From: an uncultured bacterium
GTDB taxonomy: Bacteria > Babelota > Babeliae > Babelales > Babelaceae
Direction: 5' to 3'
Assembly: GCA_963717435.1 (NCBI GenBank)
Contig: OY970332.1
Coordinates: forward strand, 928,001-992,000
DNA length: 64,000 bases
Positions 15,001 through 21,000 of the stretch are shown here, piece after piece; positions within the stretch are counted from its first letter, which is position 1; the number at the start of each line of letters is the position of its first letter. The position numbers were made by a program.

Positions 15001-18000
15001 AATGTATTATTGCAATTATATTGAGTAATGATGCCCTAATAAAATTTGAAGAAAAATTTGGAGAAAAAAGTAAGCTTTGTTTGCGTCTTAATGCAAGGGA
15101 CGTTATTAAGTTTATCGAGGAAAACGGTTGTAGAGCATTTGCTGTTATATACGATTCCAATCTATCTTCAAAAAACACTATTGAAGAACATAAAAAAGAC
15201 TATATAAGATCTATATATAAATCATCTGCAAATCATCCATTTTTTTTACAAGAAACTGTTAAACATCATGCTGAAAAATTATCTAAATTTAGCCCAAATG
15301 AATATATTAAAGCTTTATTATCGATTAAATTATTAGAAAATGTGTTGAGAGCTGTCATAGGAAACTCTACAGAGTTTTTGAAATATGATCTAAAGAAATT
15401 CGAATTTGTGTGCGATTCAGGAAATTGCAATATCGAATCAACGATCAAGTATTTCAGTTTGTTTTCTATGTTTTGTAATTCTGCAAATAACCCTATTTGC
15501 TTTGATAATAGGGAAAATATTCAGCATTTGATAGATCCATCAGGCAAGTATCTTGACGCCAGGTTGATTTTTGAAAATATTAATTTTGTTTCATCAGGGG
15601 ATGTCGCAGGTGTTAGGGCAGTAGATGTTGTTTCTAACCAGCTGTTCAGAATTTTGCATGAAGAATCAGTTGATTATGATATAGAAAGATGGAAAAATAT
15701 ATTTTCCAATCCTTATAGTTTTGATTTTTTATCTTTTGATAAAGATCAGGAATTTATAGATAGCGAAATCGGAGAAAAGGCGTTTGTTTTCCCTAAATTA
15801 TTAGGCAAAATTAATAACCTTGTATAAATTTTATAGACCCATCTTTTGTCCCGTTTCTTCAAATCATATTTAATTTTACATTACTCTTGTTTGTAATATA
15901 ATAACCCAGATTAATTTAGGGATGAATCATGGGAAAATTATTAATTACAACAATTGGCTCGGGCTTGTTTTTTCTTGGTTTATTTGGGCATGATAGCAAT
16001 AATGTAAATGCTAGATTTACCAATGAGTTTGCGCATCCTAAAATTTTAAAGTTTGAAAATAATCACCATCTTTATGATTTCAATAAAGAATTAAAAAAAG
16101 AGGGTTTATATTACCCTAAAAATAATATTACTTATAATAATCCTGCATTAAATGTTTTTTATAATCCTAGTGATTGCTGGAATTGGCAAGAAAATGATTA
16201 TTGGAACGCTTTGCTGATATTATTTGGTAAAGAATATTCAATAGGTCAGAGAGCAAATTTGCCTCAAGAATATAAGATTTTTTGTACAACAGCCACCCAT
16301 AATTATTATATTCATGATAATGATCGACAGTCTTTATTTAACCAACCAGAATTATACAATTTCCCAGCTTTCTGGGATTTTATTAAAAAATTTCCCGATT
16401 ACCCATCTTGCATTTATAAAGTTAAAGAACTAGTTGATTTTAATCCTAAAATCAAAAATAGATTTTCTAATAAAGCTTTAGACGAAATTAACAGAGAATA
16501 TTCGAGAATAAAAGGCTTTGAAGAACAGCACCAACAGTTAATAAATAATGCGAAAAACAGAGAAGTTTTTCAGCGGCGAGTAGATTCCGTTTTTCAGAGT
16601 CAGTTTGATGATTGCGTAAAAAAAGAAGAAGAGTACAAAGAGCTTAATAGTTTGTATCGGGAATATAATCTTGGAGATTGTGCAAGAATCCAAAGACGCA
16701 TAGATGCAATAGATAATATTAAAGAAACTGGATCAAAATATATTGATAAAAGCTATAATCTGGCCCCTAATCTTCTTGGCTATTTAAGCAATAATAATAT
16801 TAATTCTGAAAAATATGGCACATGTTATGGTAATCAACTTCAACACGTTATTCACCAAGAATGTGTTGATATTCTTAATAATAGCTTTTCTTTGAGCCCA
16901 CAATCTTATGCATTTGGTTATAAGAGCCCAATAATTACATTCGCTGATGCTGCTTGTGATTATAACAAAATGGGATTAACCTCTAGGGCCATGGATATAA
17001 CAGATGCCTGTTGGGCTTTTTTTGATTATGGCAAAGCCATTTTTGAGGGCGTTTCTGAGGGTCTAATTAGCGCCGCGAAAGATTTGATTGACCACCCGAT
17101 TCAAGCCGGGTTATGTGTTGTTGCGGGAGAATATGTTTTTGCTTATCAGTTATCAAAATTAATTTATAATGTTGCCGAAATTGGTATTACGTCTTTAGTA
17201 GACAAACGGGCTGGCGCCCAAAAATGGCAAGAATATGTCGCGCCACTTTCGCAACTGATCGATGCGGTGCAAAATAAGCAAATAAGCTTGCGGCATGGAA
17301 TCAAGGGCGTAACGCGTACCGTTGTTGAGTGGAAGACGCAAGACAAGCTTCTTGGTGGATTGAGTGGGTTCCTTAGGACCACAAAAAAGAAGGCGATAGA
17401 TTTCTTCAAAGATAATCCACTTGCAACACCTGAACAGTATGTGACGACCCCTGATGGAATGTTATTTAGGTCGACTGACAAGCTCAATTCTAAAAGGAAC
17501 TCAAGTCTTGATAAAATTACGGAAAAGGTATCTAAGAAAAGTCTTCTTAAGAAGCATCAGCTACCCATTAAGGGAAGAATTCGCTATGTTCCACCTAAAG
17601 ATTTACATGCCAATAAGGGATTGCCATGTAAAAGATTAGACAATAACGGAATTGGCTTCGTTGATCGTTTTGATAATGTTTGGGTAAAGGGTGTTAGTCG
17701 AACCAAGGGTCAGGCTTTCGAGTGGGATGTTCAGCTTTCAAATCAGGGCAGGCAGAAACTTGGATGGATGAGTCGTGATGGCGAACATATTAATGTAAGT
17801 TTAGACGGAAGGATAACTCATAAATGAATCTCCCAGCTTGTTTTTTAATTGAATGCATTATTACAGATGGCAAAAATATTTCTAATGAATTATTTGAACA
17901 ATTAAAAGAACTTATCGAAAAGCGTTTTGACAAATCAGATGTAAAAATAACATCGTTGAATAAGTATTGGAAATATCCCGATACTAAGCAGATTATTTTT

Positions 18001-21000
18001 GAGGTAAGAGCAAAAAATTTTATATCTGTAGAAGAGTTTACTAAATTATTTAATATAACGTGGAAGCATTCTAAATTGCCCGTAAGCAATTATGACACAA
18101 AGAAAACAGTGGACCAAGAAAGTGCTGTGTGGAATAGAAATATGTATCCTGAAGAAACATTTTTGAACAGCGATGTAGAATGGGTCCATGTTTATTCATG
18201 GCTAGATTGAAATTCTGCCTCGAATAAATTTGAAAAAAATAAGTGGGTACAAATTTTTATTTACTATCTAAACCCACAACAATAACAGAAATATTATCAC
18301 CGCTTTGGTTGGCAAAAGCGGCGTCGCGCAGGGCAGCTGCTGCGTCCAGGGCATTTTGTGAGTTGCCCGCGTTGTCAGATTTTTCAGAACCGAAATCTGG
18401 TTTGTGTGTTATATTAATTACGTTATCTTTTTTATCAAACTTTTCTGAAACAATTTTGGCCGCTTTTTCGTTATCTATAACATCCCAAACGCCGTCGCAT
18501 GCGATAATTAAATATTTGTGATCGTGAGTAAGTTTAATCGTGTGAATTTCAGGTATTCCTGATACCGCTCCGCCGTCAATTATTTTCCCCGCGCTGTTTG
18601 GTTGCTTAAATAAAAAATCTCCAAACGCACGTGAAACTGCAAGCAATGTGCTTACTCCCGGGATATAAATTCTTGGAACATCTTCTTCTTCACAAACAAC
18701 TTTGCCCCCATTTTTTTCAATACGTTCAGTTTCTTCAAGATTTATGGGCTTATGATCCCGCGATTCCCAATCAATATTATTATTTTTATCAACTAAGATT
18801 GCGCGTGAGTCGCCAAGCCAAGCGACAGTCAAGATTTTGTGGCCAGTTTTGTCTATTTCTATGTGGCCTACAACAGCTGTTGAACCCATGCTATCTGCAT
18901 AAGATTTTGTTTTTAGATCATCTTCTATGCGTGCAAAAGTTTTTAAGAATATTTGATCAGTTCTAGTTAATTTTTTTGTTTCCTGAGATTTTTCTGATTT
19001 TTCTATCTGATGATGATCTGCCTCATGATGTACAACAAATTTGTTGAATTCAAAATGCTCTATAAATTTTTCTTGGGCATATTCGGCAACCTTTTTGCCC
19101 CCGTGTCCATCAAAAATGCCAAACAAAAATTCGTTATTTGTTTTTTCCATAGGATGCGCGACAATATGCGTATCTTCCATAGTTATACGTCTTCCCTGAC
19201 GTGCGCTTAGACCCCAAGCAAATCTGTGTGCAGTTGTTTTATATTCACCAGATAATCCAGGCGCTATAAATACTAAACTTAGAAAAATAGTAAAAAGCCT
19301 AACTGATTGGTTTTTCATGAAAAAATCTTAAAGATTAAATTTTAATTTACCGGGATCGATAATATAAAAAAGCTGCGTGTTTATCAAGACTTGTATTTAA
19401 GCGTTTTTTATTTGTGGGCAGTAACTAATTAGTCGGGTTGTTTACAAGCCGAACTTGAATTGGGTAGGGTGTTTATGTTGAGTTGTGTATTATTAAAAAT
19501 AGGGGAGAGCGTGTGTGTATGGATTTTTTAAAAAATCTTATAACTAAGCTGATTTTTGCGTTGAATTTAGTCTCTGTTTCACAAATTGCAGGGGCAGTTT
19601 ATGAATCGGGCAGGAATGGCGGGAACGGGCGTGAGATTACTGAAAAAAATGCCTCGGCGCAGGCTTTGCAGGCCATAAAGAACGAAAATATGTCTCTTCT
19701 TGCAGATTTAGTAAAATATTATAAAAAACAGGGTATCGATATTAACGAGCCAGTTGATGTGTTGGGTAGAAAATATGATCTTTTGGGAGCAGCGATTTCC
19801 TGGGGAAAAGTGAAAGCTGCTAAATTCTTGTTAAGTAATGGGGCGAAATTGAAAGACGAATTTGAAATTAAATCTGTCAAAACAGCGCCGCTTATTTATA
19901 CCAAATCTATGGCTGAACTTTTGATACCTCGAGGGGTTATCGTACCGAAAATTAAAGATGTAATAGATAAGATGCGTGCGGATTCTCTTACAAAAATGCT
20001 TGATGTTAAAGAAACCGGATTAGCTTTGATAAAGTTTTTGGTAGGTCACGGTGCAGAGTTTGATCGTACCGTGATAAATAGTATTAATGCCGCTATTCAA
20101 GATTTGATTGCCGATGAAAATCATGTTTTTGTTAACAACAGTAAACATTTTCAAGAAGATTATAGCGCAGAATTCAAGGCGATAAAAAAATATCTTGATG
20201 AAAAACTAAAAAATCGCAACTAATGATATTGGGCTTAAATTGGATTTATTATATCTAGTTTGTGAATAATTTTTTTTGCATGACTATTTTTCTTTAAATT
20301 TTAATATTTTTTGCTTATTAATTATTACGCTATAATACACAGTTCGCGAAGTTTCTTTATTACGTCTTGCTCAAGTTCCTCCCAGATTGCGCCCTTTTTA
20401 ATTAAATATTGTACAACATTAGATTTGATATCGATGTTGCCAAATTGGTCATGTGTTGCATAATATAATGGCTTTAAACCATATGCGTTTAATGCATTTA
20501 TATCAGCTTGATATTGTTTTAATAATTTGCACATATAAAAGTCATTGTTATATGCTGCAATATGCATTAAATATTGAGTGTTGCCGTATTTGTGATTTAC
20601 CATATCTAAATTTGGATTAGCTTGCCTGTTGCATTTTAAAATTTTAAAAGCCTGTCTTTTATTTTTAAATACTACCGCCCAATAAAGTTTGTCGCTTTCT
20701 GAAATTTTTTCACTAAGGTATAAAGCTATTTCAAGTTGCACAATAACTTTCTGGCTTAGAATTTTCCAGTCCGCTCCATTTGCTATCAAAAACAAAGCAA
20801 CTTCGAACTTTATTTTCATATTGTCGAATTTATCATGCGTTGCATAATATAGTGGCGTATGCCCCAAACGGTTTTTTACATTCAAATCTGCGCCATATTG
20901 TTTTAACAATGCGCACATGTTTAAATCACCGTTGTTTGCTGCTATATGAATCAAAGACAGGCCATTGCAATACACGCGATTTACCAAATTAAGCCCGGGT

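Follow-up and report, generated by a model that had tools for sequence, protein, structure and literature searches.

What is the function of g00960, a 632-residue protein that ends in an Ntox17 toxin tip and overlaps a small downstream gene, g00961, and which cells would such a protein attack? We approached this question through the window, the whole 64,000-nucleotide stretch of DNA that was analysed, and through related loci in the phylum Babelota. The first-pass annotation had described two overlapping reading frames, and both are present, joined by an ATGA overlap. The features of the locus, in window positions, are:

15875..15902, forward strand: promoter-like -35/-10 site, 11/12 consensus matches, 26 nt upstream of g00960
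15929..17827, forward strand: g00960, putative full-length polymorphic toxin, 632 aa
15929..15988, forward strand: signal-peptide-like N-terminus of g00960, aa 1-20, from hydropathy; modelled helix at 2-19
16136..16468, forward strand: variable N1 domain of g00960, aa 70-180, candidate targeting/export domain
16571..17473, forward strand: conserved helical core of g00960, aa 215-515, family-defining carrier domain in two alignments (A1/A2)
16967..17203, forward strand: Gly/Ala-rich, mildly hydrophobic helices of g00960, aa ~347-425, candidate membrane-crossing segment by presumed role
17417..17470, forward strand: switch motif P...P..Y..TPEG of g00960, aa 497-514, point of tip exchange
17546..17821, forward strand: Ntox17 tip of g00960 (Pfam), aa 540-631, with E598/D600/H620
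17824..18210, forward strand: g00961, 128 aa, predicted immunity partner of the toxin, with a YWK motif, overlapping the toxin stop at ATGA

The promoter-like site is the top of 18 consensus matches within 15600-18500 (shuffle mean 12.1) and is a consensus match only. The Ntox17 tip is intact, with 100.5 bits against a Pfam cut-off of 25 (E 6.5e-29); a Pfam scan of g00960 gave nothing outside this tip, and g00961 gave nothing above the Pfam cut-off. The ExD and H motif given for Ntox17 in a section of PMC3482391 is represented by E598, D600 and H620, which are invariant in 7/7 family tips, and Ntox17 activity is predicted.

The conserved part of g00960 is a helical core of about 300 residues (aa 215-515). 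An N-terminus of 500 constant residues had been proposed; aa ~215-515 are indeed constant, but the first ~200 residues are variable, and in the family this stretch ahead of the core is itself exchanged and has a length of 156 to 1766 residues. Pfam, NCBIfam and PDB sequences contained no match to the core, and comparison of two models, partly of low confidence, with known folds by Foldseek and VIA-align gave a best Z of 6.4-6.6, with none at Foldseek E<=0.001. Rows for alpha-pore-forming toxins were weak (Z 5.6-5.8) and lie within noise. ESM Atlas leads to MafB (0.85) and PT-TG (0.84) fall below the reliable range of 0.9 and were not confirmed; the Pfam MafB family (MafB-N) matched 0/45 core members at E<=0.05, and full-length proteins were negative too. 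The helices at aa ~347-425 have the highest mean column hydropathy of the core (+0.3 to +0.9) and low pLDDT in both models. Target-cell entry is left unexplained by a core with neither a recognised fold nor a true transmembrane helix.

Export by Sec had also been claimed. The underlying hydrophobicity rule is passed by 39/48 toxins, and aa 1-20 hold the sole 19-residue windows of g00960 with hydropathy >1.2; however, signal-peptide-like N-termini are frequent in this lineage, and 273/487 large ORFs of the same genome pass the rule as well. The N1 domain of g00960 is modelled at a pLDDT of about 90 and is poorly conserved. Paralogues in one genome (G153) carry two N1 types with 33-60% DNA identity between types, and N1 exchange is independent of the tip.

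Beyond the core the tips are interchangeable, as had been proposed, and the exchange takes place at a fixed point. Tips exceed the Pfam cut-off in 18/48 loci (Ntox17 7, EndoU 4, Ntox21 4, Cytotoxic 1, Colicin_D 1, Ntox35 1) and in 40/150 members of a second protein set, and all of these assigned tips are nuclease or predicted-nuclease toxin families. The other 30/48 tips have no Pfam family over the cut-off, and one tip bears an HExxE motif and may not be a nuclease. Twenty tip clusters are present in 46 loci. Within the switch motif, P501 and Y504 are invariant in the alignment. The earlier observation of different tips on one N-terminus is reproduced at the DNA level, where paralogue identity drops from 76-99% to 20-59% right after the motif; even paralogues with 93-100% DNA identity carry unrelated tips, the sequence switching past P..Y..TPEG. 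Seven paralogue pairs combine core identities of 75-95% with tip identities of 12-22%, and 7 other pairs combine core identities of 18-47% with tip identities of 49-84%. On a core tree from a quick IQ-TREE search the tip families are scattered, Ntox17 requiring 6 changes for 7 rows.

The genes behind the toxins follow the tip. A coupled small gene, previously counted at 22/30 loci, was found as an ORF of 70-310 aa starting -35 to +30 nt from the stop in 45/48 toxin loci, as against a background of 22/166 long ORFs in the g00960 genome. All pairs of loci that share a downstream family (41/41) also share a tip family, out of 51 pairs that share a tip, and 5000 shuffles gave a mean of 2.0 and a maximum of 11. 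Core descent does not account for this co-variation, given the scattered distribution of tip families over the core tree. Just 2/46 downstream genes are signal-peptide-like. The single CdiI_N match reported earlier has been extended: CdiI_N follows two Ntox21 tips and CdiI_ImmP follows two other tips.

Several loci (L035, L089, L093, L199 and L201) hold arrays of 4-6 immunity genes, and at some loci short, decayed tip remnants precede intact immunity genes; the g00960 locus has neither a poly-immunity array nor an orphan cassette. Immunity genes lacking a cognate tip occur in three genomes (G027, G015 and G049), cases being counted only where the same search gave a positive control, which left out two of four such searches, and could be recent leftovers after tip replacement. 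Two candidates for classical orphan cassettes that keep a core homology arm proved to be contig ends and were rejected. The second locus of the g00960 genome, at contig positions C1:740563-744018, is as first described, with a 780-aa ORF (g00759), a 141-aa ORF, a 77-aa repeat of the tip and a 137-aa paralogue. Its tip does recur on g00960-type proteins in genome G027, on two core-bearing ORFs (L089 and L092). The N-terminus of g00759 is unlike that of g00960, as was noted, and represents a separate carrier; remote membership in the core family was rejected (no HMM match, hhalign probability 0.2%).

A gene of the g00961 type lies behind 7/7 Ntox17 loci, each with a gap of -4, and the family occurs in 10/201 genomes, all within the 12 that have Ntox17. 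In a predicted complex, the Ntox17 tip and g00961 reach a score of 0.85, while the best control stays at 0.00; the mark of the pair was attained by 116/157 solved pairs and by 2/215 mismatched pairs; runs share at least 94% of contacts, with partner pLDDT of at least 84. A sequence search for a solved homologue found none, and an ESM Atlas search with g00961 returned no result. In the model, binding of g00961 is predicted to cover R591, D600, H620 and N622 of the toxin. Identity with Imm31 (PF15591) was rejected, since g00961 and its 6 paralogues were negative while the Imm31 profile did match other Ntox17 neighbours. The pair resembles the Ntox17-Imm31 pair (PF15524, PF15591) in its ExD/H tip and differs from it in its partner. 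Relatives of g00961 also sit behind Rhs, PT-HINT and eCIS toxins that end in Ntox17, and we predict that g00961 represents an unnamed, Pfam-less Ntox17 immunity family marked by the YWK motif.

As read from sequence, the family has a shared core of ~300 residues, a tip and downstream gene replaced together at TPEG, nuclease-type tips and tip-specific small genes. The shared carrier, the switch at a fixed motif, the nuclease tips, the tip-specific coupled small cytoplasmic genes, the immunity arrays and the predicted complex, which are all the hallmarks open to computation, uphold the first-pass annotation in its reading of a polymorphic toxin-immunity system. The g00960-g00961 pair is therefore probably a MafB-MafI-like toxin-immunity pair of the Babelota aimed at other bacteria, most likely rival Babelota.

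The lifestyle of these organisms suggests another target. Babelota are obligate intracellular parasites, and C. destructans is described in part of PMC6561590 as secreting nucleases, replicating wrapped in mitochondria and degrading the host nucleus; g00960 could accordingly be an effector exported into the protist to cut cytosolic or mitochondrial host RNA, the small gene guarding the producer or supporting host addiction, as hypothesized for Bodocaedibacter in excerpts of PMC8163844. Full-length paralogues coexist, with up to 12 matches per genome, as do the Amoebophilus APD effectors used in parallel. However, according to the relevant text of PMC3482391, endosymbiont toxins aimed at the host usually come without immunity genes, whereas 45/48 loci have one here; arrays accumulate, immunity persists without toxin, tips and immunity families are held in common with Rhs, CdiA and eCIS toxins, and ubiquitin-system, ankyrin, lipase and GTPase domains are absent from the 198 tips or proteins scanned. 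We consider host-directed action unlikely. A promiscuous entry module serving against both rival bacteria and the host or its mitochondria, according to tip and N1 type, is less likely still: N1 regions, swapped separately from the tip, sort into 12 clusters, about 30 tip clusters occur in 188 rows and bacterial-type rRNA/tRNA nucleases could hit mitochondrial translation, but direct evidence of a eukaryotic targeting feature is lacking, and a lipobox-like motif occurs in 1/98 proteins.

Like the polymorphic toxins MafB-MafI of Neisseria (PMC4287609, in part), of which MafB is listed with EndoU, Ntox17, Ntox21 and Ntox35 in a section of PMC3482391, the family combines a signal-peptide-like N-terminus, a lineage-specific constant domain and a variable C-terminal nuclease with an immunity gene directly downstream and several full-length paralogues per genome. 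Unlike MafB, the core is not MafB-N, no mafA-like lipoprotein gene lies upstream of the toxins and the phylum is obligately intracellular. Microscilla-N and Amoebophilus APD1/APD2, for which passages of PMC3482391 expected further cases, likewise join a signal peptide and a conserved, lineage-restricted domain to polymorphic C-termini. The APD proteins, as described there, carry a lipobox and tips directed at the host, lack immunity genes and occur in one species; the Babelota family, with a lipobox-like motif in just 1/98 proteins, pairs nuclease tips with tip-specific immunity and is found in 64/120 genera. Since this arrangement of signal peptide, lineage-specific domain and variable tip was already known, the novelty is in the carrier domain and lineage, not in the principle.

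Toxin-immunity modules of other obligate intracellular bacteria include those of the protist endosymbionts Odyssella (PMC3482391) and Ca. Bodocaedibacter (PTS I-III; PMC8163844) and CRCT/CRCA of Rickettsia (PMC9111745), for which parts of these sources propose kin conflict, host addiction and superinfection blocking. Those modules are alphaproteobacterial, known from single species or a few lineages and associated with components of T6SS, Rhs or CDI. In Babelota, by contrast, a single new carrier extends through roughly half of the phylum, and type II is the secretion system that has been reported there. With CdiA-CT/CdiI, Rhs and colicins E3/D the family has tip and immunity pools in common (Ntox21 with CdiI_N, CdiI_ImmP, Colicin_D, Cytotoxic), but haemagglutinin, VENN, Rhs/YD and colicin receptor domains are absent from the 150 proteins scanned. 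In the g00960 genome (89% complete) VipB was not matched and ShlB/CdiB stayed under the cut-off, and two secretins and two GspF genes are present.

The core is widespread, as the earlier count of its N-terminus (31/151 Babelota genomes, up to 11 copies) had indicated: a recount with the N-terminal 500 residues gave 50/201 phylum genomes, and a core profile search gave 93/201, with up to 12 matches per genome. The g00960 genome holds a single copy. Plasmid, phage and IMG/VR collections lacked the core; core sequences form 1093 clusters at 50% identity, none of which comes with a taxonomic label. A scan across GTDB extended to close relatives only, and 3/15 of its loci are titled Pseudomonadota with unsettled placement, so that restriction to Babelota is not established. 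A conserved upstream partner gene was rejected, upstream genes forming 54 clusters in 56 loci. The core is patchy within its own family (8/27 genomes) and insertion sites are scattered and non-syntenic, with IS elements adjoining some, a pattern that would suit selfish or anti-phage toxin-antitoxin-like cassettes or, as part of the literature describes nucleotide salvage from the host by this lineage, secreted nutrient-scavenging nucleases, with tips as shuffled mobile debris. A toxin-antitoxin pair would not need a 500-residue exported carrier, though, tips and partners derive from interbacterial toxin pools and arrays against absent toxins would be useless for scavenging; we regard a function not involving delivery as very improbable.

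For a toxin aimed at rival bacteria, the path would begin with crossing of the inner membrane by Sec, after which the protein would exit either through the secretin-based type II system or inside outer-membrane vesicles; as the Neisseria secretin is not required for MafB export, the type II step in Babelota is a guess. The Gly/Ala-rich core helices may then assist cytoplasmic entry of the tip into a bacterium that shares the protist or vacuole. Once inside, the tip would cut RNA, unless the entered cell makes the matching immunity protein. More speculatively, and with clearly less confidence than in the reading just given, the core may be a new cell-entry module in a phylum-wide Babelota arms race within protists, in which unrelated Sec-exported carriers draw on ~30 shared tips and antidotes to exclude rivals and N1 sets the target range, possibly including host mitochondria. 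If so, the phylum's core type II secretion system would have an antibacterial role and about 20 uncharacterised toxin-immunity pairs would be gained.

Polymorphic toxins with immunity are called rare in intracellular bacteria in a passage of PMC3482391, and excerpts of a 2025 survey (PMC12644861) describe Babelota as having no classical toxin-antitoxin systems. A carrier in about half of the sampled genomes, together with immunity arrays, would imply encounters and conflict between these minimal parasites and their relatives, probably in co-infection. The core would offer toxin-discovery pipelines a new trafficking domain and g00961 a second Ntox17 immunity family with a testable interface, and many tips of unassigned type are testable in E. 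coli. Three DNA sequencing runs gave short low-depth contigs only; one contig spans the toxin-immunity junction, and the source sample is a possible origin.

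Two overlapping genes make up the toxin locus, as the first-pass annotation had described: g00960, whose C-terminal toxin domain (tip) is of the Ntox17 type, and g00961, its predicted immunity partner.

15929-17827: g00960, toxin ORF, 632 aa
17824-18210: g00961, ORF of 128 aa, start overlapping the g00960 stop by ATGA

The sole Pfam match in g00960 is Ntox17 (aa 540-631, E 6.5e-29), and a Pfam scan of g00961 gave none above the cut-off. The best promoter-like site in the region lies 26 nt 5' of g00960 (consensus match only). The flanking genes encode DUF3800 and PP2C (Pfam) in a neighbourhood that is not conserved; the DUF3800 gene (14901-15827), immediately 5' of the toxin, has a low GC content of about 29%.

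The toxin family is real, and what is new in it is the carrier domain and the Ntox17 immunity family; the design was already foreseen in section 37 of PMC3482391. These predicted toxins would work in the same way as MafB-MafI (PMC4287609), but have neither MafB-N nor mafA and hence do not belong to that system. Related cases in intracellular bacteria are described for Odyssella (PMC3482391), Bodocaedibacter (PMC8163844) and Rickettsia CRCT/CRCA (PMC9111745). We found no literature report of polymorphic toxins in Babelota in main texts (most subscription papers lay outside the search, and supplements may list single tips). The main text of two toxin surveys (PMC13483458 and 10.1101/2021.10.19.465003) does not name the phylum, and the word 'toxin' is absent from PMC12172432. 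The statement in PMC12644861 that Babelota lack TA systems refers to classical families.

An AlphaFold model of g00960, built from 35 sequences, begins with a hydrophobic helix and a folded domain, N1 (aa 70-180). A long helix spans aa 181-246 and leads to a helical bundle modelled with confidence (250-370); the helices that follow (370-500) are rich in Gly and Ala and of low confidence, and a linker then connects them to the tip. Conservation is highest at aa 295-515 and stops at a P..Y..TPEG motif. The profile of the helical core (A2; aa 215-515, 45 rows) matches 93/201 genomes and 64/120 genera of the phylum, with at most 12 matches per genome, and 1093 clusters at the 50% identity level; the core had no match in Pfam, NCBIfam, PDB sequences or fold comparison. 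The N-terminus had been called constant, which holds for this shared core and not for the region before it, which is 156-1766 aa long and forms 12 clusters among 98 proteins. PT-HINT lies ahead of the core in two proteins, and five paralogues in genome G153 represent two N1 types. A tandem array of four toxin-immunity pairs in the same genome (L033:6586-17356) has its N1 type swapped independently of the tip, and forms of 1300-2100 aa (P0040, P0054, P0114, P0123, P0127, P0140) carry the core near the C-terminus after large unassigned regions.

To this core are joined interchangeable tips, as had been proposed, with EndoU, Colicin_D, Ntox21 and Cytotoxic tips all seen. The sample, a subset of the matches, came from 30 loci taken automatically plus 21 selected regions and contained 52 distinct core ORFs; removal of 4 open or short ORFs left 48, of which 46 had an ORF visible downstream. 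The tips of these 46 fall into 20 clusters, and 188 partly redundant rows, with database proteins added, form 31. Tips over the Pfam cut-off among the 48 are Ntox17 (7), EndoU (4), Ntox21 (4), Cytotoxic (1), Colicin_D (1) and Ntox35 (1); such tips occur in 40/150 database proteins, which add a barnase-type ribonuclease. Paralogues diverge after the motif: DNA identity between G153 paralogues b and c is 82-100% before it and 38-55% beyond. Core identity is 75-95% in seven of eight different-tip paralogue pairs (36% in the eighth), with tip identity of 12-22%, and is 18-47% in the seven same-tip pairs, against 49-84% for the tip. Tips are dispersed over the core tree (built by quick search), Ntox17 requiring 6 changes over its 7 rows.

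One tip cluster (L030, L047, L050, L201) has an HExxE...H motif, which we take to suggest a metal-dependent enzyme and not an RNase; another (L025, L043:4866-6947, L051, L108), with a PD-(D/E)xK-like pattern, is presumably a DNase. At L010, L018, L019, L042, L089 and L107 a colicin E3-like tip has an unusually large, Pfam-less partner of ~265 aa. IS elements adjoin toxin loci L012:1240-4127, L041 and L046; at L012 a shortened tip is followed by a transposase.

The small downstream gene stands as an immunity candidate, since an ORF of 70-310 aa begins -35 to +30 nt from the toxin stop at 45/48 loci, against a baseline of 22/166 long ORFs in the own genome, and downstream families track the tips: the same downstream family accompanies the same tip family in 41/41 pairs (shuffles, mean 2.0, maximum 11), a count that includes related genomes, kin not being independent. 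In a second batch of loci the downstream ORF is coupled in 12/13 (upper length unlimited). Judged from the core tree, the predicted immunity pairing moves with the tip rather than the core. Four of the 46 partners are CdiI families, and only 2 of the 46 look exported. The g00961 family occurs in 10/201 genomes, each of them one of the 12 that have Ntox17, and in 61 metagenome Ntox17 loci it stands behind 9/9 toxins that bear the core and whose downstream ORF is complete; of the other neighbours there, 22/33 were scanned and 4 matched Imm31. Twelve neighbours selected for their YWK motif, some of which follow Rhs, PT-HINT or eCIS toxins, can be aligned to g00961 with 96.2% probability. These Pfam-less g00961 homologues (L143, L148, L158, L160, L162-L164, L170, L173, L176, L183, L190) belong to metagenome Ntox17 toxins of Rhs, Hint and eCIS type.

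Structure prediction supports binding of g00961 to the Ntox17 tip: the co-folding score is 0.85, against 0.00 for the best of three controls, on a scale whose mark is reached by 116/157 solved and 2/215 mismatched pairs (counts roughly valid for the alignments used). The runs share at least 94% of contacts, with partner pLDDT of at least 84. The modelled interface covers tip residues R591, D600, H620 and N622, which are invariant in 7/7 Ntox17 tips; a sequence search for a solved homologue gave none. The N-terminal region of g00960 has one copy in its genome, and the nearest relatives of g00960 (63% and 54%) bear tips other than Ntox17. Because the Ntox17-g00961 pair occurs in 0/27 other genomes of its family and the g00960 core clusters with cores from another family, horizontal gain of the pair is suggested.

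A second locus in the same genome has the content reported for it, and its g00759 toxin differs from g00960 at the N-terminus, which is unrelated to the core.

C1:740563-744018 (L032:4564-8019): 780-aa toxin, its partner, a 77-aa repeat of the tip and a paralogue of the partner
L095:140-2776, L096:3522-6065, L097:3242-5302: second family of carriers, which resemble the N-terminal part of g00759 but bear other tips

Four ORFs from three other genomes match the g00759 N-terminus and carry different tips at their ends; behind the L097 carrier stand immunity genes that belong to several families. The second-locus tip occurs in 21/201 genomes. In G027, where the earlier observation had it on one ORF, it sits on two ORFs that bear the core; it is also attached to other carriers, 6/10 of which match PT-HINT (three over the cut-off). 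The same partner family always lies beside this tip where the locus reaches far enough. At least three Babelota carrier types thus share one tip pool. The tip, also found at L075-L088, L090 and L091, is Pfam-less, ends in an 'IKIRY' motif and has its own immunity family; in several of its carriers PT-HINT sits directly behind the signal peptide and not ahead of the tip.

Extra immunity genes form arrays behind many toxins (L035, L089, L093, L199, L201), and decayed tips are still trailed by intact immunity genes. Counting only searches in which other genomes matched, the partner of tip cluster 3 is present without that tip in G027 and G015, and that of cluster 14 in G049 (G027 and G049 being single contigs, 95-96% complete). 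Such genes would guard solely against the toxins of relatives, though they may be leftovers. Because of these arrays and tip-less immunity genes, and because host-directed endosymbiont toxins lack immunity genes according to PMC3482391, conflict among bacteria is the favoured purpose; that the toxins are directed at the host, as might fit the multiplication of C. destructans wrapped in a mitochondrion (PMC6561590), we consider less probable.

Sec export, also claimed previously, is compatible with the 39/48 toxins that fit a signal-peptide rule, but the rule is poorly selective, as 273/487 large ORFs of the own genome fit it too; signal peptides are reported on 44% of C. destructans proteins (PMC6561590). 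Matches to VipB in the own genome were absent, and none to ShlB exceeded the cut-off; two secretins and two GspF genes are present.

G000:C1:589391-594885: secretin pair
330213-331187 and 703106-704086 (same contig): GspF/PilC genes

Type II secretion is a core trait of the phylum according to PMC4776705 and PMC4378268, and would be a candidate export route of the toxins; vesicles (PMC6561590) may offer an alternative. The most hydrophobic stretch of the core, aa 347-425, is yet under transmembrane level. The secretin genes lie 5 kb from each other, and the two GspF/PilC genes are at separate places.
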